Sequence record: PZ445554.1
From: a phage
Reading direction: 5' to 3' (one strand)
Length of the DNA: 64,000 nucleotides
In this document: in pieces, positions 34,885 to 59,909 of the stretch
How positions within the stretch are numbered: the first letter of the stretch is position 1
How the letters are laid out: each line of letters starts with the position of its first letter
The notes under the pieces: generated by a model
Seen by the model: the letters and a program-made list of their open reading frames with translations, nothing else
Told to the model about the DNA's origin: nothing
The model's database searches: none
Made by a program: the position numbers and the translations under genes

Positions 34885-35100
34885 TTAATCGTCGCAGTCG
34901 ACGCTCAATTCCCAGAATTCTTCTACGGTATAAGTTTCAGTATCATTTTCAATACAGAAACGTTCATTACTATTGTTTGCTAAAGTAGCATTAACTGTCA
35001 TTTTTTCGCTAGTGCTCTTAAGAGGTGAAATACGAATTAACTGATCACCGTTATCTAAACAAAAAATTTCACCAACTTTTACATCTTTAAAACTTTTCAT
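34885..35100 (-). CDS. hypothetical protein, 71 aa
   Basis: ORF track. Confidence 0.4.
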   Translation of the reverse strand: MKSFKDVKVGEIFCLDNGDQLIRISPLKSTSEKMTVNATLANNSNERFCIENDTETYTVEEFWELSVDCDD

Positions 35101-35215
35101 AATTCACCTCAAGGAGTATAAAATCCAAACGCAGTTGTTGACCATCCCATCCAATATGGAAAATTTGCACCAATGTAAAACATAAGAATATAAAACCAAC
35201 CGCTCAGCAAATTCA

Positions 35216-35413
35216 TCATTTTACACCATTCCAAATTGTTTCAACCACGGATTTTAAACCATTTTGATGAATATCAATTCCGACTACTGTCATCAAATAG
35301 ATTCCAACTACAACTGAACCTAAGGCAAAAATCAGCATGAAAATGAATAAAGCCGGAAAAATATTATCGAAAAACCATTCAATAAATGTAAAAGCACTGC
35401 GTTTACGCTTCAT
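35216..35413 (-). CDS. small membrane protein, about 65 aa
   Basis: ATG at 35411-35413 with SD GAGGAAAA (track TTG start rejected). Confidence 0.4.
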   Translation of the reverse strand: MKRKRSAFTFIEWFFDNIFPALFIFMLIFALGSVVVGIYLMTVVGIDIHQNGLKSVVETIWNGVK

Positions 35414-35420
35414 ATTTTCC

Positions 35421-35534
35421 TCACATAAATCCAAAGTAAACGTTTAATACATCAATCATTAAAACGATTGGGAATATACTCAAAACTACTAGTATTATAA
35501 CTACATTCCATATAGCTTTAATAATCTTTTTCAT
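35421..35534 (-). CDS. small membrane peptide, 37 aa
   Basis: ATG at 35532-35534 with SD GGAGG just downstream of a promoter cassette; the track's longer form translates the cassette itself. Confidence 0.3.
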   Translation of the reverse strand: MKKIIKAIWNVVIILVVLSIFPIVLMIDVLNVYFGFM

Positions 35535-35555
35535 TTTCTGTTCCTCCGTAGTTGA

Positions 35556-35593
35556 TAGGGTAATAGTACCACGGAAGAACAGTCTTGTAAACA
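35556..35593 (-). promoter_or_regulatory. T4 early-type promoter (cassette copy)
   Basis: GTTTAC-spacer-CGTGGTACTATTAC. Confidence 0.45.
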
Positions 35594-35776
35594 ACTTTTT
35601 AAAAATATTCGTAATAAATGTGAATACCAACTACTACCGCTGAAACCTGTGCAACCCACCACGCACAAGCAATAAGTACAGAATTCAAAATTTTCATAAT
35701 AACCTCATCACAAAAGTAAATGTTAAACAAATTAATGGAATACTAATTAACCAAACAAAACACCACCATAATGAAC

Positions 35777-36040
35777 TCATAGTTCAATCTCAGCGATTTT
35801 CATTTCATTATTGTTAATAGCATTTTTAAGACTATCCGAAAGAATTACATTCCAGTGGTCATTCATATGACCATTAACTAAGCGTGTAATTTCTTCGGGA
35901 GTTGAAAAATAAGGCGTATCAGACTCCCAATGCGATAATCCTAAGCGAGTATAAATCATGCCTTCATCATCGCTAGAATATTCAACTGACACAAACTCAT
36001 CAGTTATTTTATGTTTAGCGTAATAAAATTTAAATTTCAT
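35777..36040 (-). CDS. hypothetical protein, 87 aa
   Basis: ATG at 36038-36040 with SD GGAG downstream of promoter cassette 36068-36104; the track form starting at 36139 runs through the cassette. Confidence 0.4.
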   Translation of the reverse strand: MKFKFYYAKHKITDEFVSVEYSSDDEGMIYTRLGLSHWESDTPYFSTPEEITRLVNGHMNDHWNVILSDSLKNAINNNEMKIAEIEL

Positions 36041-36067
36041 TTTACTCTCCAAATCCGTATCAGTTGA

Positions 36068-36104
36068 TAGTTGTATAGTACCACGGTCCTTGTGGTATGT
36101 AAAC
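36068..36104 (-). promoter_or_regulatory. T4 early-type promoter (cassette copy)
   Basis: GTTTAC-spacer-CGTGGTACTATAC. Confidence 0.45.
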
Positions 36105-36120
36105 CATTTTGTGAAATTTT

Positions 36121-36678
36121 TTAAATGGAAAGATACCATCCGCTGTAGTTGCTTTTTCTTACAACCTTACGAAGGTCTTCTCTATCACCGATGAACTTCG
36201 GAGTGTATTGGATGACACCTGGATGAATTTCTTTAGTGTTGAATATAATTATACAGTCAGCGACTTGATGATTTAGAATGGGCCCTAGATTTATTCCAGA
36301 ACCATATGGATACTCTCCGCTGCATCCTGTTGTCACCGAAATCCAACGTGAGTCAGTTTGATGTGTCTTAACTTCTACACGAAGCCCGCAGTATCTTGGA
36401 TGCGCCAATACATCCCATGCATATGTGTACGGATCATCGACATCTTCTTGACCTTTGTTAACATACCCGCTCAGCCAATCTGCTACAAAAAACTCTGCGT
36501 ACACAGCGATACGGCATCTTTCGATAACTTCTGCCTTATCCTGATTTGGGTTTTGTTTTAAAGAGTATCTTGCAGTATCAACAATTTTGACCTTCATTTC
36601 ACTAGTCAAGTCACTGTTCGATAGGGTAAATGTCGGAATCTGAAATAGTCTCTGTAACCCCGGATTCGTTTTCTGCAT
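36121..36678 (-). CDS. denB: endonuclease IV
   Basis: 185 aa equals T4 EndoIV length; SD AAGGAAAG; position upstream of rIIB. Confidence 0.6.
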   Translation of the reverse strand: MQKTNPGLQRLFQIPTFTLSNSDLTSEMKVKIVDTARYSLKQNPNQDKAEVIERCRIAVYAEFFVADWLSGYVNKGQEDVDDPYTYAWDVLAHPRYCGLRVEVKTHQTDSRWISVTTGCSGEYPYGSGINLGPILNHQVADCIIIFNTKEIHPGVIQYTPKFIGDREDLRKVVRKSNYSGWYLSI

Positions 36679-36940
36679 TTAAACTTTCCTTTTTACCACT
36701 AAGATAAGCGTTATACACTTTAAGAGTACCATAGTAAATTCGATCATTTTCATCTAAAGAATTACGATCAAGTTCATCGAGATTCTTTTTGTCCATGACT
36801 ATAACATCATTGCAGTAAAGAACTCCAAGTTTTTCATGCCCAAACTCGAATTTATTGCAGTACACAATATTAGCGTAATGATTACCATGTAGAGAAATTT
36901 CTTTTATGTCGGTGTCACCGATATTCATACAATAAATCAT
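36611..36940 (-). CDS. hypothetical protein, 109 aa
   Basis: ORF track; overlaps denB N-terminus by 68 nt in another frame, so uncertain. Confidence 0.35.
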   Translation of the reverse strand: MIYCMNIGDTDIKEISLHGNHYANIVYCNKFEFGHEKLGVLYCNDVIVMDKKNLDELDRNSLDENDRIYYGTLKVYNAYLSGKKESLNAENESGVTETISDSDIYPIEQ

Positions 36941-36950
36941 AATTTACCTT

Positions 36951-36974
36951 AAAACAAAAGGGCCGAAGCCCTTA
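36951..36974 (-). terminator. stem-loop / terminator (one of two identical copies)
   Basis: AAGGGCCGAAGCCCTT with U-rich tract on the minus-strand transcript. Confidence 0.45.
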
Positions 36975-36976
36975 TT

Positions 36977-37171
36977 TTATTTGAATTGTTCAATTCTTTT
37001 CTCTAAACAGTCAGCATAAGATTTCATTGAGATAAACTGCGAAAGTAACAGTTCTTGCTCAACTGCACTAACTGTTAGAAACTTTGCGCTTTCTAAAAAT
37101 TTGCTCAGTGCATTAATTTTGAGCATTAATTGATCGTATTCTTCTTTTACTCGTGCTTGATAACCTAACAT
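36977..37171 (-). CDS. hypothetical helical protein, 64 aa
   Basis: ORF track; flanked on both sides by identical stem-loops. Confidence 0.4.
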   Translation of the reverse strand: MLGYQARVKEEYDQLMLKINALSKFLESAKFLTVSAVEQELLLSQFISMKSYADCLEKRIEQFK

Positions 37172-37185
37172 AATTTTCCTTAGTT

Positions 37186-37201
37186 AAGGGCCGAAGCCCT
37201 T
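37186..37201. repeat. second copy of the AAGGGCCGAAGCCCTT stem-loop
   Basis: Identical hairpin between the rIIB stop and the RBS of ORF 36977-37171. Confidence 0.5.
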
Positions 37202-38138
37202 ATTTAAATTGTTCAGTAACGTCTTCAACTACTTCGTATTGACAGGTACGCATTTTAGCATCGTTGTAATCAATCGGAATTGATACTACATCACGCGGAT
37301 GTACTTTAACTTTTACAACTCGGCTGGTTGAACTGCCAAAGTGACGAATATAAGATTTAGAACACACATGCAGACCACGAGAACAAGTTTGTGTATCATC
37401 GTCATTCACACGAGTACGTGGCATTTTAACTACTTTACCCGGACTGTTATCAAAGGTGTTTGAGTGACAGTCAAAGTAATTGCTGCGAACTACTTTCCAA
37501 GCATAGAAGTAGCCATCTTCTGTAATTTCAATATCGTTTGCTACCAAGAAATCAAAGAGTCGAGATACTGCTTTTTGGCTTGGGTTTTCCAGCAGATTTT
37601 CCAAGAACGGAAAATAAAATTCAAAGTTTTCGCCTTTTTCCATCGAGTCAAGAATACGATCAACCAAACCAGACCGCAATTCAATATTTTGATAGAACAA
37701 GCTTCCACCTTCAATTCGAACATCGCCGGAAATATATTTTTCAACAGCGCGACGAACATTAATTTTTTGTGCCGCTTCTTCCAACTTATCCGCTACAAGC
37801 AGATTAAGAATTTCCTGGAAGTTTGAATGAGTATTAGGAGTTGCGTTATAAGTTACACCGTCAACAGTAATTGAAATGAATTTTTTAGATGCATTCCAAA
37901 TAATGTCAGATTTAGCAACTGGAGCAATAACTGCATCGCTATTAACTTTAACTGTAATATCACCGCTAATAGTAACTTTAGGGCGTTTAGCTTCTTCAGC
38001 ATTTTTCAAAACACGACGGATTGTGTCAACCGATACATCCTTCCAATAAGCTAATTCCTGCTGAGTGTAATTACCACTTGAATACAGTTTAACAATTTCA
38101 GCTTGTTCGTTTTTGGTCAGGCATTTAATATTGTACAT
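37200..38138 (-). CDS. rIIB: rIIB protein
   Basis: 312 aa, length and position downstream of rIIA match T4. Confidence 0.85.
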   Translation of the reverse strand: MYNIKCLTKNEQAEIVKLYSSGNYTQQELAYWKDVSVDTIRRVLKNAEEAKRPKVTISGDITVKVNSDAVIAPVAKSDIIWNASKKFISITVDGVTYNATPNTHSNFQEILNLLVADKLEEAAQKINVRRAVEKYISGDVRIEGGSLFYQNIELRSGLVDRILDSMEKGENFEFYFPFLENLLENPSQKAVSRLFDFLVANDIEITEDGYFYAWKVVRSNYFDCHSNTFDNSPGKVVKMPRTRVNDDDTQTCSRGLHVCSKSYIRHFGSSTSRVVKVKVHPRDVVSIPIDYNDAKMRTCQYEVVEDVTEQFK

Positions 38139-38149
38139 AATTTTCCTTA

Positions 38150-40327
38150 TTAGGCCGCAAGGGCCTTCATAGTTTTAGCGATTTGAGAAACTTCATCATC
38201 ACTTAAAGAGTTGCGATATCCGATGAAGTCGGAAACAATACGGAATTTCTTGGTAAACTCAGCAACCATTTTATCACTGTTTTTTGAAGCATTATTTGAT
38301 AATACATCAAAAAGATTAGTTACTGTCCAGATGTCATGACCGATGGTATCTTTTCCACCATTAAAATATACACCGCGCAATGAACTAACTATATTAGCGA
38401 GTCGTGTATATTCTTCAGAAACTTCATCTGTACTGAAGTACTTCATCATAAAATCTAGTTCAGGATACTTGATAATTTTATCAATATATCGTTGAGCTGA
38501 ACTTGAATAACCTACGTACTTATCATAATCTACATCATCAAAAGCATCTACATATAAATCACGCAGAGTTTCAAAAATACATTGGCACTGACCGAGTTCT
38601 TTTACCTTTTTCTGCAAAAGCGGACGAATAACATAAAACTCATTAATGCCAATAAGATTAGCCATACGAATCAAAATATTCATAGATGGATGACAAAGAG
38701 ATGTAGTACCATCCATAGAGAAAATATCAGAACGATGCATATACGCTACATAACCAGTAATTTCATCTGCTTCTGATGTGAGCGTAAATAGTTCCTCTTT
38801 TTCCCAGCGCCCGTCTTTAATTTCAAACTTAAATGCTGTAGCAGCTTTAGGACGAGGAGCTTTACTTTTAACTACCTTTGGAATATAACTTTTTACTAAA
38901 GCTTCAATTTCTGACAAATAATGAATGTTAACTTCATCACTTTCAAACATCGCCATAATGTCAGGAAGTAAATCAATCTGCGATTCTACTTCTGGGTTAA
39001 TAAACAGAAGGCGTTCGTTATGATGAATATTCAAAGTGTTATTAAATTCACTATCATCTAATGCATGCGCTAATCCACGGACAATATTAACACGATTTTT
39101 AATATTGTCAATAACGATATTAATTTTTGTTGTATTAATACCAAACAGACGATAACTTGATGCAACGGCTGAAGTTTCATGACTTTGCTTAATGCGTTTC
39201 AGTCGAGGGTCAAGATTTACTTCATACACAACTCCTGCATTGCATAACTTACTGTCAGGTTCAAACATGCTTTGCATCTTTTTATATGACAGATTTTTAG
39301 TCGTGAATTTGACTGAATTACTAATCATATAATCTCGAGCAGAATATCCCATCTTCATCAATTCACGATATGTGTGACGAGGAGATGTAGATTCTTTAAA
39401 TCGTTTTACATCTTCATTAAATGCTTTCTCACTGAGTTCTTTAACTCGTTCAATAATATTTTTACGAGTACGATCATCTAGTGAAAGAGCTTCGCGTGAT
39501 GGAGCAATATCAAGCGAACCCATTGGAAACTTAATGTAATTCACTTCATTACGAATGCTTAGCCAGTTACGGTCTTTAATAACACCATCGATAGGATAAA
39601 CAATACCGCCATAGATAGCATATAATCCACCACGATCAGGCCAGTATCTTTCTGGATTTACGCCGTAATAATCATCAAAATCCGGAAAATAATCAATTTC
39701 GCGGTCAAGACCATTAATGATAGCCAAATCTTTGAATGGTCGCATGATATAAGAAACTTCATAAGCAAAGTTTCTAAAGTCTTTTTCTTCAACTGGAACT
39801 ACGATTTCAATACCAGTTTTATCATCTGGACCCATTTCTTTTACGAATGTAGGTTTAATCTGTGGACCATCACCATCCATGTAAGCTACATAACCACGAA
39901 TTTCACCTTTATGATACGAAGTAATACTAAATGTATCAGTATAACTAAATGGAGATTTAGAACCTAAACCAAATCCGCCAATAAAGTCATTAGATTCAGC
40001 CTTAGATGAACTGAAGTATGAATTATACAGACCAGGAGAATTATCATCACCTTGAATATCAAAATCACTCATACCCGGACCAAAATCTCGGCAAACAAAT
40101 CGCGGGTCTAATCGTCCTGGAACTTGAATGATAAATTTTTCAGGATTTCCATTGAGAGCATGGGCATCAATCATGTTAGTAATCAATTCACGGACTACTG
40201 CGCGAATCTTGTTTGTATACAAATCAGATGACAGAATTTTAAATACTTTAGGAGATGCTGTGATGCTAAATGCTTTTGATTTAGAACCATTACCAAGAAT
40301 TGTTTCTTTTTCAGTGGTGATAATCAT
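38150..40327 (-). CDS. rIIA: rIIA protein
   Basis: 725 aa, length and position match T4 rIIA. Confidence 0.9.
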
Positions 40328-40337
40328 AATTTCCTCA

Positions 40338-40541
40338 TTAATTCATATTACGTTTAATAACTTCGGCAACTTCTAGTAGTTCATCTTTAGTTGCGGTGTC
40401 GGATTGAATTTTATCTCTAATATCCTTAAAGCGGTTTTTAAATTCTTCGGCTTCTCCCATATCGAAAAAGCGTTGAATGATTCTATATTCTCGATGAACT
40501 GCTTTATCAAAAAGTTCTAAATTTACTTTATATGATTTCAT
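40338..40541 (-). CDS. hypothetical protein, 67 aa (rIIA.1 position)
   Basis: ORF track, ATG start; early promoter at 40565-40596. Confidence 0.45.
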
Positions 40542-40564
40542 TTCAATATCCTCATTTGCCCAAT

Positions 40565-40596
40565 TAATTATACCACATCCTTGTGGTAAAGTAAAC
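40565..40596 (-). promoter_or_regulatory. T4 early-type promoter upstream of ORF 40338-40541
   Basis: GTTTAC-17 bp-GTGGTATAAT; overlaps the gp39 3' end. Confidence 0.5.
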
Positions 40597-42416
40597 TACT
40601 GACTCATCCATTCTTTACGAAGGTCAGCATTATCTCCCATGAGCATTTCAAAAAGCTCTTTCCAGTTCTCAGGAAGTTTAACAACATCATATACTGGATT
40701 TTGAATCATCTCACGATATTCAGATTTTTCCAAAGAGCCAAGTCCTTTAATATAACGGATGCTATGTTTAGGTAGAGCATCTTTGGCACTCTCATATTCA
40801 GCGACTGTATAAAACCATTCTTGTTTTTTACCGACCTGAGCGATGATTACAGGAGTTTTGACAAAGCGAATTCGTCCTTGCTCAAACAATTCTGGCCAAT
40901 TACTAAAAAATCCAAGCAGAGAAGGATAAATGCTTCCTAGACCATCATGGTCAGCATCAGTCATAATAGCGATATTGTGATAATTCAAGTTTTCAGCTTT
41001 TTCACCGAGAACTAATCCAGTGATTGCGCAAATATCAAATAGTTCTTTGTTTTTAAGCATATCTGCATAAGACATACCCCAACTGTTGAGAACTTTACCG
41101 CGCAATGGATAACCACCGTGAAGTTCTTTATCACGAACATCAATAAGATATCCGATAGCCGAATCACCCTCAGTTAAAAATAATGTAGTATCAGCATCTT
41201 TACCACAAAGATTCGCTTTGATATGTTTATGAACCTTAGCTTTAGAAGCCTTTTTAGCTGCTTTAGTTTCTGCTGCTTTTTCTGCCGCCAATTTACGAGC
41301 CAAAGCAGCTTCAATAATCGGCATTAGAATTGCTTCATTATTCAAAATAGCACGTGAAATCTTTTTAGCGTCAAGTTGAATATGACTACGAATTTCGCCA
41401 AATGGAGAAGTCAAACGCTCTTTAGTTTGAGAATCAAATCGCATGTTTTTCATATCACGAACAAACATAACGATAGTCAAACATTCTTTGACACGCGCTT
41501 TAGTCACATCAATTTTGAACTTACGTTTGATTTGTGGAATAAGGTCTTCACAAATATCATCCATAACACAGTCAATGTGATGGCCACCATTCTTAGTATG
41601 AATGTTATTGACGTATGTTAATTGACGAAAACCATCCGGTGAACGACCAACCGCAATAGAACAATTTTCTTGTTCTTGAACGATAGCATGTTCATCATAC
41701 TGTCGTGCATATTTCTTAAAATTGCCCTGAACCTTTTTACCATTAAAGGTAAATTGAATATCAGGATAAACTACCGCAAGTGTCTGGAGACGATCTAGTG
41801 TAATGTCAAGATAAACTTGGGACAGCTCATTAGTTTCAAATGACATAAAATCAGGAATGAAAGTAACACGAGTTCCTTTCCATTTTCCAGGAATATCTTC
41901 CCATGATTTATTTTCCATGCCGTTTGAACAACGAACTACAATATTATTTTGACCGTCACCAGTTTCACCGACAAACATCGCAGAAAAAATGTTTGTCAAA
42001 CTAGAACCAACGCCATTCATACCGCCAGTGACGCGTTCTTTATCATCACCAAAGTTACCACCTGCTTTTGGAATAGTCCATGCAGCAACTGGACCAGGAA
42101 TTTCTTCACCGGTAGGTGTTTTAACCATCGCTTGTGGAATACCGCGACCGTTATCTTCAACTGTTACCTGATTATTTTTAATGGTAACATTAATTTTATT
42201 TGCGAATTTAAACTTAGTACGAATACCTTCATCTACTGAGTTATCGATAATTTCATCAATAAGCTTAACAAGACCAGGTACATACTGAACACTTTCCCAT
42301 TTACCAAACAGAAAGCGCTCATGCATTTCATTAGCAGAAGAGCCAATGTACATGCCACTACGCTTTTTGATATGTTCAATATCGCTCAGAATTTTAATTT
42401 CATTCTTAATCATCAC
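40596..42416 (-). CDS. 39: DNA topoisomerase II large subunit gp39, unsplit form
   Basis: 606 aa, GHKL ATPase plus TOPRIM (GyrB/ParE-like); one continuous ORF. Confidence 0.9.
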   Translation of the reverse strand: MMIKNEIKILSDIEHIKKRSGMYIGSSANEMHERFLFGKWESVQYVPGLVKLIDEIIDNSVDEGIRTKFKFANKINVTIKNNQVTVEDNGRGIPQAMVKTPTGEEIPGPVAAWTIPKAGGNFGDDKERVTGGMNGVGSSLTNIFSAMFVGETGDGQNNIVVRCSNGMENKSWEDIPGKWKGTRVTFIPDFMSFETNELSQVYLDITLDRLQTLAVVYPDIQFTFNGKKVQGNFKKYARQYDEHAIVQEQENCSIAVGRSPDGFRQLTYVNNIHTKNGGHHIDCVMDDICEDLIPQIKRKFKIDVTKARVKECLTIVMFVRDMKNMRFDSQTKERLTSPFGEIRSHIQLDAKKISRAILNNEAILMPIIEAALARKLAAEKAAETKAAKKASKAKVHKHIKANLCGKDADTTLFLTEGDSAIGYLIDVRDKELHGGYPLRGKVLNSWGMSYADMLKNKELFDICAITGLVLGEKAENLNYHNIAIMTDADHDGLGSIYPSLLGFFSNWPELFEQGRIRFVKTPVIIAQVGKKQEWFYTVAEYESAKDALPKHSIRYIKGLGSLEKSEYREMIQNPVYDVVKLPENWKELFEMLMGDNADLRKEWMSQ

Positions 42417-42439: not shown

Positions 42440-42468
42440 TATTATACTCCGGTAATCATAAAGCTAAA
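42440..42468 (-). promoter_or_regulatory. middle-promoter-like element upstream of gene 39
   Basis: MotA-like box AGCTTTA, 12-bp spacer, TATAAT. Confidence 0.4.
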
Positions 42469-42490
42469 GGCCCGAAGGCCTTTTATTTAA
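42466..42490. terminator. stem-loop with flanking A- and T-runs (bidirectional terminator-like)
   Basis: Stem AAAGGCC, loop CGAA, stem GGCCTTT. Confidence 0.4.
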
Positions 42491-53065: not shown

Positions 53066-53090
53066 GAAAAAAGGACTCCCGAAGGAGTCC
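53066..53090 (-). terminator. rho-independent terminator downstream of soc
   Basis: Same hairpin as at 521-538, preceded by an A-run on the plus strand. Confidence 0.6.
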
Positions 53091-53098
53091 TTGAATTA

Positions 53099-58390: not shown

Positions 58391-58753
58391 TTAAAAGAAT
58401 TTAAATTTTTTCTTTGACCTTTTATTAAATGCATCTTGTAGTTGCATTGTAATACATTTTTCTACATGAGGAGCTAACTCAGCTTTTCTTTCTTGGTCAA
58501 GAACAGCAAAGTCCATTACAACCTTTCCATCAACCCAATCCAGTTTAGTTACATACACTATATGTGTAGAACCATCTTCTAGTTTAATGACAATCTCCTG
58601 GATAACATTTTCCATAGCGGATTTAATTATCTTAAGAGACTCATTAAAAAGACGTTCTTTTCTTTCTTCTTCCCCCTCCGAAGAGGGGGATTCATCGATA
58701 ATTTCTAGATCTAAATCTAAATCATCTTTATTCATTAAATTCTTCCATATCAC
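58391..58753 (-). CDS. 40: head vertex assembly protein gp40 (candidate)
   Basis: 120 aa with GTG start (or 114 aa from ATG at 58733-58735); position between 41 and uvsX. Confidence 0.45.
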   Translation of the reverse strand: MIWKNLMNKDDLDLDLEIIDESPSSEGEEERKERLFNESLKIIKSAMENVIQEIVIKLEDGSTHIVYVTKLDWVDGKVVMDFAVLDQERKAELAPHVEKCITMQLQDAFNKRSKKKFKFF

Positions 58754-59909
58754 TTAACTGTTCGAGGTCAGTTTCTAAATCAGCAGCTGATTTACTTTTA
58801 CTTTCTGGAGATTTAAATTTTTCAACCTTTGAGTTAATCAATTCATCAACTTCAGCTTCAACAATTTCATTACTATCAATAGCACCTAACTGATAAGCAC
58901 GTTTAATAGCATCTCGGAATGGTTGATGCTTAAATAAAGGACCCCAGAATGTAGTGCAATTGGTATCTTTTGCACGCCAAGATTTTTCTTCGCGAATCAT
59001 CTCGCCGGTTTCTTCATCAAGAAATTCACGAGCATACCAGCCATTTTTAGGTTTTACCACGAATCCTAATTCTAGAGCCATATCTAACAATCCAGAATAA
59101 GGATCGATACCACCGTCAAATTTAACATCAATAAAGAATTTACTTTTTTCTTTAACGGTACGAGATTTTTCTACATTTAGAACAAATTGATACCCCTGAA
59201 GATCGGAACCATCTTTAATCTGGCGCTTACCGATAATGAATACAGTATCAGCCGAATACATTACGCCTGTACCACCTGTCATCACGGTTTTACTAAACAT
59301 TTCAATTGTTTCAATTGTATGGTTAACCGCAACACATGGAATATTTTTAATGCTAAAATAAGGAGTAACAATACGGAATAATGACTTCAGTGATTTAGCA
59401 CGAGTCATATCTGCCACAGATTTTTCATTCAAGGCATCTTCAGTTTCTTTCTTGGAAGCCATATTACCAATTGAGTCGATGAATACAATAACTTTTTCAC
59501 CGCGCTCAATAGCTTCAAGCTGGTTCACCATATCAATTTTCAGCTGTTCAACTGACTGGATTGGCGTATGAATTACTCGTTCCGGGTCAACTCCCATGGA
59601 TCGCAAATAAGCTGGAGTAATACCAAATTCGCTATCATAGAATAGACAAACCGCGTCAGAATATTTGTTCAAATACGCTGCAACCATAGTCAAAGACATA
59701 TTTGATTTAAAGTGTTTAGAAGGACCTGCGAAAATAGTTAAACCAGACTGCATACCGCCATCAATCGCACCAGAAATAGCGATATTAAGCATTGGGATTT
59801 TTGTACGGATTACATCCTTTTCATTAAAGAATTTAGATGTAGTCAGTTCAGCAGTCATTTTAGAAGTGGAAGCTTTAATCAAACGGGATTTTAAATCTGC
59901 AATAGACAT
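58728..59909 (-). CDS. uvsX: RecA-like recombinase UvsX
   Basis: 393 aa; RecA fold, Walker A GPSKHFKS. Confidence 0.9.
   Translation of the reverse strand: MSIADLKSRLIKASTSKMTAELTTSKFFNEKDVIRTKIPMLNIAISGAIDGGMQSGLTIFAGPSKHFKSNMSLTMVAAYLNKYSDAVCLFYDSEFGITPAYLRSMGVDPERVIHTPIQSVEQLKIDMVNQLEAIERGEKVIVFIDSIGNMASKKETEDALNEKSVADMTRAKSLKSLFRIVTPYFSIKNIPCVAVNHTIETIEMFSKTVMTGGTGVMYSADTVFIIGKRQIKDGSDLQGYQFVLNVEKSRTVKEKSKFFIDVKFDGGIDPYSGLLDMALELGFVVKPKNGWYAREFLDEETGEMIREEKSWRAKDTNCTTFWGPLFKHQPFRDAIKRAYQLGAIDSNEIVEAEVDELINSKVEKFKSPESKSKSAADLETDLEQLSDMEEFNE

Follow-up and report, generated by a model that had tools for sequence, protein, structure and literature searches.

Why should a small gene between rIIB and denB of a T4-type phage be bracketed by two identical stem-loops? 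The question arises from a 64,000-nucleotide stretch of phage DNA (sequence record PZ445554.1, hereafter the window), for which a sequence-only reading took the two stem-loops, located on either side of a 64-aa open reading frame (ORF), to be the footprint of a gene cassette inserted by recombination between stem-loop elements. The analysis presented here leads to a different answer, namely that the repeats are very probably sense-strand C(UUCG)G hairpins at the 3' ends of rIIB and denB.1 that function mainly as RNA 3'-end elements.

Gene content of the rIIB-denB interval

The window belongs to Tequatrovirus, that is, to a T4-type phage. With a 2.3-kb query spanning this part of the genome, Shigella phage SHFML-26 is matched at 98.8%, and matches at 90-99% are obtained to several hundred T4-type phages. 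All genes of this stretch are encoded on the minus strand. In the direction of transcription, rIIA (38150-40327, 725 aa) is followed by rIIB (37200-38138, 312 aa; PHROG 609, E=8e-110, and T4 annotation), the 3' end of which carries the first hairpin (HP1), by the 64-aa ORF (36977-37171) and, downstream of the second hairpin (HP2), by a 109-aa ORF (36611-36940) and denB (36121-36678, 185 aa). The 64-aa ORF exists at the position that had been given for it, on the minus strand, and is denB.1 of T4 (AAD42562.1) by both position and alignment. It is separated from its neighbors by intergenic gaps of 28 and 36 nt. The 109-aa ORF, which also lies in the rIIB-denB interval and was missing from the earlier reading, encodes a DUF7418 protein (Pfam PF24193, E=4.5e-36) of the RB32ORF268c/RB69ORF272c family.

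The DenB.1 protein belongs to the Pfam family PF21825 (crAss001_48-related, E=3.9e-19) and to PHROG 774, and its comparison with PDB sequences yielded no meaningful match (E=0.7). denB.1 is a conserved small gene, and the 'endonuclease' label that is attached to it in many records finds no support here. Among the papers searched, the name denB.1 turns up in a single one, of the genome-announcement type.

Structure of the two hairpins

The 20-mer AAGGGCCGAAGCCCTTATTT occurs in two exact copies in the window, at 36958-36977 and 37186-37205, and no third copy was detected in the window at up to 3 mismatches. The 20-mer had 0 matches across 100 dinucleotide shuffles, so that none is expected by chance. 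The second of these positions is exactly as previously reported; the first had been placed one base off, at 36959-36978. On the sense (minus) strand, the RNA of each repeat reads AAAUAA-GGGC-UUCG-GCCC-UU, and in both cases a stop codon precedes, or is partly included in, a four- to seven-pair GC-rich stem that is capped by a C(UUCG)G tetraloop.

HP1 (37185..37202, minus strand) can be read as the RNA hairpin UAAGGGC-UUCG-GCCCUUA, with the rIIB stop codon (37200-37202) forming part of the base of the stem and a computed folding energy of -10.1 kcal/mol for 18 nt. This hairpin has no U-run, and its tail, AACUAAGG, is not terminator-like in a scan of the minus strand for terminators. HP1 is directly followed by AACUAAGGAAAAUUAUG, which contains the Shine-Dalgarno sequence (SD) and the start of denB.1, with the start codon 13 nt downstream of the hairpin; this copy of the repeat (37186-37205) is thus located, as had been noted, between the rIIB stop and the 64-aa ORF's ribosome-binding site. 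HP2 (36958..36973, minus strand), which reads AAGGGC-UUCG-GCCCUU, starts 3 nt past the denB.1 stop codon and has a computed folding energy of -8.8 kcal/mol for 16 nt. Downstream of HP2 come UUUUGUUUU and then the 109-aa ORF with its SD and start. The U-rich tract UUGUUUUA (36950..36957, minus strand) carries on from the two U residues that end the HP2 stem; hairpin and tract together form a signal like that of an intrinsic terminator, located upstream of the SD and ATG that belong to the 109-aa ORF. Of the two hairpins, HP2 alone is terminator-like in a consensus scan of the sense strand (tail TTGTTTTAAG), in agreement with the U-run that the sequence-only reading had ascribed to one copy. In the GenBank record of phage G8, both hairpin sites are labeled putative terminators. 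Owing to the very small size of the element, 61-nt folds around the hairpins reach only modest z-scores (-1.3 and -1.7), and an Rfam covariance-model scan of positions 35000-41000 found nothing relevant, its one match being a chance-level miRNA match away from the hairpins (E=0.31), which scored far under the gathering threshold.

The true repeat is longer than the 20-mer and can be written TGAACAATT[T/C]AAATAA(+AAATA in one copy)GGGCTTCGGCCCTT, at 37186-37215 and 36958-36992. Copy 1, TGAACAATTTAAATAAGGGCTTCGGCCCTT (37186..37215, minus strand), comprises the last rIIB codons (..EQFK), the stop codon and the hairpin, and copy 2, TGAACAATTCAAATA+AAATAAGGGCTTCGGCCCTT (36958..36992, minus strand), comprises the last denB.1 codons (..EQFK), the stop codon, a 5-nt insert (36978-36982) and the hairpin. 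The repeat extends into the ends of both coding regions, and therefore the rIIB and DenB.1 proteins both end in EQFK.

Other UUCG hairpins in the window

The window's eight strongest UUCG hairpins include six located 0-6 nt past the stop codon of an ORF on the same strand: 24265(+), 53071(-), 42466(-), 37185(-), 36958(-) and 519(-), the first of which belongs to a plus-strand gene block. Because these hairpins track the direction of transcription, they are best understood as RNA elements; a recombination signal that operates at the DNA level would have no reason to do so. Among the related hairpins that had been proposed to mark other gene boundaries, the one at 42466-42483 is genuine (AAAGGCC-UUCG-GGCCUUU, overlapping the stop codon of an 86-aa minus-strand ORF), whereas the stem at 38152-38164, located within the last codons of rIIA, is weak, with 4-5 bp around a loop of 5 nt. 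The window also contains a second pair of near-identical hairpins, at 519-540 and 53071-53092, 52 kb apart.

Conservation of the rIIB 3' hairpin across T4-like phages

We compared 80 loci with rIIB homologs at 35-100% identity; for each, the hairpin with the best local fold was taken from the 73 nt that begin at the stop codon, and 800 segments of 73 nt drawn at random from the rIIB coding regions of these loci served as a control. In 67 of the 80 loci, a hairpin of -9 kcal/mol or stronger lies no more than about 30 nt from the rIIB stop, compared with 17 of the 800 control segments (2%), and 71 of the 80 T4-like loci have a hairpin at the equivalent position after rIIB. The loop is UUCG in 43 of the 80 loci, compared with 0 of 800 in the control segments, and the remaining loops are mostly of the GNRA type. 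The stems vary widely (GGGC, GGAGGC, GGGGAC, GGAGCC, AAGCCCUC and others). In particular, JS98, PEi20, Kosakonia phage 305, VAC36, X20 and PKO111 all have a UUCG loop just past the rIIB stop, on stems that differ (GGAGGC, GGGGC, GGGGAC, AAGGAGAC, GGAGCC). In a loop-anchored MAFFT alignment of 38 distinct hairpins, made without three sequences that had shifted, all six stem pairs show double substitutions, a count that is biased because each hairpin was picked as the best fold of its segment, the unbiased support being the comparison with random segments. The rIIB 3' hairpin is conserved as a structure and not as a sequence. It is almost universal in the T4 superfamily and, of the non-coding features of the locus, is one of those that persist most widely there.

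Predicted roles in the rIIB-denB.1 message

Given its U-run, HP2 would most likely act as a Rho-independent terminator or attenuator that ends the rIIB-denB.1 message. HP1, in contrast, lacks a U-run and is followed by the denB.1 start codon after 13 nt, which makes a read-through stabilizer or attenuator the more likely role. It would most likely allow read-through into denB.1 while providing a fast-folding barrier against 3'-to-5' exonucleases and an insulator between the two cistrons; PMC3014915 lists the host enzymes of this kind that break down T4 mRNAs. A literature search found no T4 transcript 3'-end mapping or termination data for this locus, and the terminator and stabilizer roles are for this reason deduced from sequence and conservation. 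The repeat could, in addition, act as a recombination substrate, although this would not be its main function, and no products of such recombination were detected among the sequenced Tequatroviruses.

Conservation of denB.1 within Tequatrovirus

If denB.1 had been recently inserted between the hairpins, its presence and absence at the repeat boundaries would be expected to vary among T-even genomes, as the sequence-only reading proposed to check. No such variation was observed among the approximately 498 Tequatrovirus genomes, in which the ORF and the hairpins are conserved, and by the refuting condition set in that reading itself the cassette fails at this level. denB.1 and both hairpins are present in all six aligned sequences (the window, T4, ZN18, Sf22, SHFML-26 and G8). 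Tequatrovirus records with this rIIB end number about 498-500; a 421-nt query that spans the rIIB end, HP1, denB.1 and HP2 is matched over 80% or more of its length by 494 records, and DenB.1 at 80% identity or higher is encoded in 497 phage records. Thus, denB.1 with both hairpins is fixed in Tequatrovirus (at least 494 of about 498 genomes).

The 2.3-kb query gave two-piece BLAST matches that could be taken for presence or absence of denB.1. This explanation was rejected since alignment places the gap in the 109-aa ORF, and the apparent signal is now assigned to this neighboring DUF7418 ORF. T4, ZN18 and Sf22 share an internal deletion of about 212 bp in the 109-aa ORF that leaves its first ~50 and last ~90 nt in place, and G8 and SHFML-26 carry the ORF intact. 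It is the 109-aa ORF, and not denB.1, that is the polymorphic element within Tequatrovirus.

The exact product of recombination between HP1 and HP2 was represented by a synthetic junction of 117 nt that consists of the rIIB tail, one hairpin and the downstream flank of HP2 (...GAACAATTTAAATAAGGGCTTCGGCCCTTTTGTTTTAAGG...). A megablast search of INPHARED with this junction at the default threshold matched 498 records. The best 30 of these 498 matches are all two-piece and span about 340 bp, which implies that denB.1 sits between the pieces. At E ≤ 1e-38, a threshold that only a contiguous match can pass, there were 0 contiguous matches to the denB.1-loss junction in 50,697 phage records. An exact-pattern scan of IMG/VR for the HP1/HP2 deletion junction also gave 0 matches, in a search that had no power because the intact junction itself matched only twice.

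Variation between genera and the cassette interpretation

Between genera, the rIIB-denB interval is modular and shows at least five architectures. In Tequatrovirus, the X20-like loci L045 and L056, and locus L037, the order is rIIB-HP-denB.1-HP-(orf109)-denB (type A). Dhakavirus, Kanagawavirus and Marfavirus have rIIB-HP-denB.1-orf109-denB (type B), with denB.1 in the same slot and one hairpin only. RB69 (Mosigvirus), PKO111 (Jiaodavirus), a group that probably includes Karamvirus, and loci L039-40 have rIIB-HP-orf109-denB (type C). In loci L048-50, rIIB overlaps denB.1, followed by HP-orf109-denB (type D), and several more distant loci have rIIB-HP-denB (type E). denB.1 is accordingly absent in RB69, PKO111, the group probably including Karamvirus and other loci, and each of these has exactly one hairpin between rIIB and the homolog of the 109-aa ORF.

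This patchiness is one ground for interpreting denB.1 as a mobile single-gene module that would enter or leave the interval by homologous recombination via stem-loop repeats, in the manner of a mini-circle undergoing Campbell-type integration or excision, with the repeats representing a duplicated crossover site. We consider this explanation unlikely. Several observations fit it. The repeat brackets exactly one gene, and the denB.1 end carries rIIB-specific tail codons, as integration at a site composed of the rIIB tail plus hairpin would produce. On a neighbor-joining tree of a single domain, the C-terminal domain of rIIB, three sister contrasts in the presence of denB.1 are seen (Tequatrovirus/Mosigvirus, Marfavirus/Jiaodavirus and L048-49/L039), and exactly one hairpin is kept by the lineages that lack the gene. 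The single hairpin of RB69 has the rIIB tail on its 5' side, as HP1 does, while its 3' flank (U-run, SD, ATGATT) resembles that of HP2, an arrangement that fits either a deletion between HP1 and HP2 or the state before insertion. Moreover, recombination at stem-loop cassettes, with mini-circles, has been documented in T4-type phages for PeSLs (promoter-early stem-loops; Arbiol, 2010, PMC2839356; Comeau, 2014, PMC4122927).

The evidence against a cassette comes from both levels of comparison. Within Tequatrovirus, there is neither polymorphism in the roughly 498 genomes nor a contiguous excision junction in the phage records searched. Between genera, the occurrence of denB.1 with a single hairpin in Dhakavirus, Kanagawavirus, Marfavirus and L048-50 shows that the gene predates the repeat, which is therefore no scar of its insertion. 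For two of the sister contrasts out of three, the side with denB.1 has one hairpin, and flanking repeats cannot have mediated the change there. The DenB.1 identities to other genera of 58%, 48% and 46% rank in the same order as the rIIB identities of 62-64%, 58-60% and 57-58%, which is consistent with vertical descent. Furthermore, HP1 and HP2 vary independently in G8 and T4, and the repeat of 20-30 nt is very short for homologous recombination to be efficient. Thus, the cassette interpretation is refuted for a recent or polymorphic insertion in T4-type phages; between genera, where denB.1 is patchy and one hairpin is left behind, it partly holds, in that the data are compatible with it. A role of the hairpins as recombination sites is possible.

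Origin of the identical copies

If the hairpins are primarily RNA 3'-end elements, the identity of the two copies calls for a separate explanation. Across genera, rIIB ends in ..EDVTEQF, with or without K and a few further residues, and this is the ancestral form. DenB.1 of other genera ends in ..RIARF, ..RIQRF, ..RIANF or ..ISYFGE, usually without a hairpin after the stop. A comparison of C-termini across genera shows that DenB.1 ending in ..QFK and followed by a hairpin identical to that of rIIB is specific to Tequatrovirus. Because the rIIB tail is ancestral, DenB.1 ancestrally ended in ..RIxRF, and the QFK end with its hairpin is confined to Tequatrovirus, a copying event is suggested in which about 26-30 nt, comprising the last rIIB codons (QFK), the stop codon and the hairpin, would have been transferred in the ancestor of Tequatrovirus to the end of denB.1 (its 3' end), the copied tail and hairpin being retained since then by selection on the hairpin. 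The sequences indicate that such a recombinational copy is the simplest explanation of the identical tails, although partial convergence is possible, with the F residue being ancestral in both the rIIB and the DenB.1 tails and GGGC-UUCG-GCCC being present after denB.1 in the distant locus L056 as well.

Concerted evolution or gene conversion between the copies was also considered and is unsupported. A UUUG loop is present in HP1 only, in G8 and in locus L018, and T4 has different single-base changes or indels in each hairpin copy, which are not shared. The copies vary independently, so that no ongoing gene conversion is seen.

A more general version of the copying event, which we regard as rather improbable, is that promoter-less modules of about 25-35 nt, each a gene tail plus a UUCG hairpin, are copied between gene ends and serve as portable crossover sites for the excision and integration of single genes. 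If true, this would explain the rIIB-derived tail of denB.1, the hairpin pair 519-540/53071-53092, and the way in which denB.1 was repeatedly lost or gained with one hairpin left in place (Mosigvirus, Jiaodavirus and locus L039). If such copying of tails with hairpins were general, it might conceivably extend the modular shuffling of PeSLs to promoter-less elements, as a hairpin-only counterpart of the mini-circles.

Independent convergence, in which the hairpins arose separately and are identical since the design space (a stop codon, a G-rich 4-bp stem, C(UUCG)G and a U-rich tail) is tiny, appears very unlikely. The same hairpin, AAGGGC-UUCG-GCCCUU, does follow denB.1 in the distant locus L056, the stem of the window hairpins, with another loop, follows rIIB in locus L037, and the window holds the other near-identical pair, 52 kb apart; however, the identity runs about 10-16 nt into two unrelated coding tails (TGAACAATTYAAATAA), which is hard to account for without copying, and the QFK end of DenB.1 is specific to Tequatrovirus. 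A PeSL-type cassette, in which each repeat would be an early-promoter/stem-loop unit that ends upstream transcription and restarts it, is scarcely tenable: the order of stem-loop, SD and start codon among the early genes of a T4-type phage does resemble the 3' half of a PeSL, but both hairpins lack a promoter, the gaps are merely 28 and 36 nt, and neither the stem nor the promoter of the PeSL consensus is found at HP1 or HP2.

Comparison with known systems

The PeSL is defined as a sigma70-like early promoter (-35, a spacer of about 17 nt, -10, and an AT-rich upstream region) that overlaps or adjoins a stem-loop (PMC2839356), and its reported consensus in PST and T4 combines the stem AGNA-loop-TCNT with the promoter TTTACW..TAYWAT. 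A promoter scan detected no minus-strand sigma70-like -35/-10 pair near 36941-36976 or 37172-37199, the nearest promoter-like sites on this strand being located inside rIIB and denB, and the assignment of HP1 and HP2 to the PeSLs was rejected on this basis. The window hairpins resemble PeSLs in being short repeated intergenic stem-loops beside small genes, and in both cases stem-loops mark the boundaries of gene content that differs between lineages. They differ in the absence of a promoter and in the invariance of the flanked gene among close relatives: PeSLs flank genes that are inserted, deleted or replaced between close relatives, whereas denB.1, fixed with its hairpins in Tequatrovirus (at least 494 genomes out of about 498), varies between genera only. 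PeSLs also form excised mini-circles via neighboring copies (PMC2839356).

HP2 is like the intrinsic (Rho-independent) terminators, with a GC-rich stem-loop followed by the U-run UUUUGUUUU; HP1 differs from them in that the U-run is absent. The 3' stem-loops that guard mRNAs from PNPase, RNase II and RNase R are similar in being stable hairpins at the ends of cistrons, a likeness from which we infer protection for the message described here.

The closest match is with the C(UUCG)G hairpins of T4 itself. The UUCG tetraloop was first recognized in phage T4 mRNA (Tuerk et al., 1988, as recounted in PMC4371310) and is described there as defining an exceptionally stable class of hairpins. T4 hairpins of this class have thus been on record since 1988, and both of the present sites are labeled terminators in some existing GenBank records. 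The finding, a known class of T4 CUUCGG 3' hairpins flanking a known gene, denB.1, matters little for discovery; its value is corrective and descriptive, in that the identity and strand of the ORF are now fixed. Both copies share with the T4 hairpins the UUCG loop, the closing C-G pair and the short GC-rich stem within an AT-rich genome, as well as the sense strand and the position directly 3' of coding regions, and T4 carries both elements. There is no essential difference between the two, and the pair in the window represents two members of this class with identical sequence.

Remnant of the DUF7418 gene in T4

The 82-nt spacer that separates denB.1 from denB in T4 (positions 1162-1243 of the T4 locus, L001) is a remnant of the gene for the DUF7418 protein, which is present in the window as a 109-aa ORF (36611-36940, minus strand). 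An internal deletion of approximately 212 bp in this gene, with its ends at a short AAAAG repeat, is common to T4, ZN18 and Sf22; the ORF is intact in G8, SHFML-26 and the window. In the window, 68 nt of this ORF also belong to the longest reading frame of denB. The denB start in the G8 record is a later ATG that gives a gene of 477 nt.

Annotation and translation signals of denB.1

Many GenBank records label DenB.1 (36977-37171) as an "endonuclease", and matches to this protein in crAss-like Bacteroides phages (36% identity) are named "shock protein C". The Pfam assignment is PF21825 (crAss001_48-related), and DenB.1 showed no recognisable nuclease domain. The "endonuclease" name was probably carried over from the adjoining denB. 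Identical 14-nt ribosome-binding modules, TAAGGAAAATTATG, are located upstream of rIIB (38139-38152) and denB.1 (37169-37182) on the minus strand, and a close variant, TAAGGTAAATTATG, is found downstream of HP2, the hairpin that follows denB.1.

UUCG hairpins in the window

HP2 (36958-36973) and HP1, the hairpin that follows rIIB (37185-37202), are each preceded on the sense strand by AAAUAA, so that the plus strand also reads as a hairpin with a T-rich tail and both are accordingly classified as terminator-like on this strand by the consensus scan. Given these plus-strand predictions, HP1 and HP2 could also block antisense transcription.

A second pair of nearly identical UUCG hairpins, with the consensus [G/A]AGGACUCC-UUCG-GGAGUCCUU followed by UUUU(C)AUUUU, is encoded on the minus strand in two copies 52 kb apart (519-540 and 53071-53092), each of which begins 3-6 nt past the stop codon of a small ORF (72 and 78 aa). 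The similarity is confined to the hairpin and the U-run and does not extend into the upstream coding tails. A very GC-rich hairpin, UCCCCCUC-UUCG-GAGGGGGA (58671-58690, minus strand), is located 37 nt past the end of a 393-aa ORF (58728-59909) and falls within a possible 114-aa ORF (58391-58735).

Variation among related phages

The loop of the rIIB hairpin is UUUG instead of UUCG in two Tequatrovirus loci, L014 (phage G8) and L018, a natural tetraloop variant; UUCG is retained in the denB.1 hairpin of both. In three T4-like phages represented by IMG/VR contigs of about 170-173 kb (L048-L050), rIIB and denB.1 overlap as TAATG with no hairpin between them, and the sole UUCG hairpin (AAAGCCC-UUCG-GGGCUUU) is located 3' of denB.1. 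This placement is the mirror image of the layout in Dhakavirus and Kanagawavirus, where the single hairpin follows rIIB.
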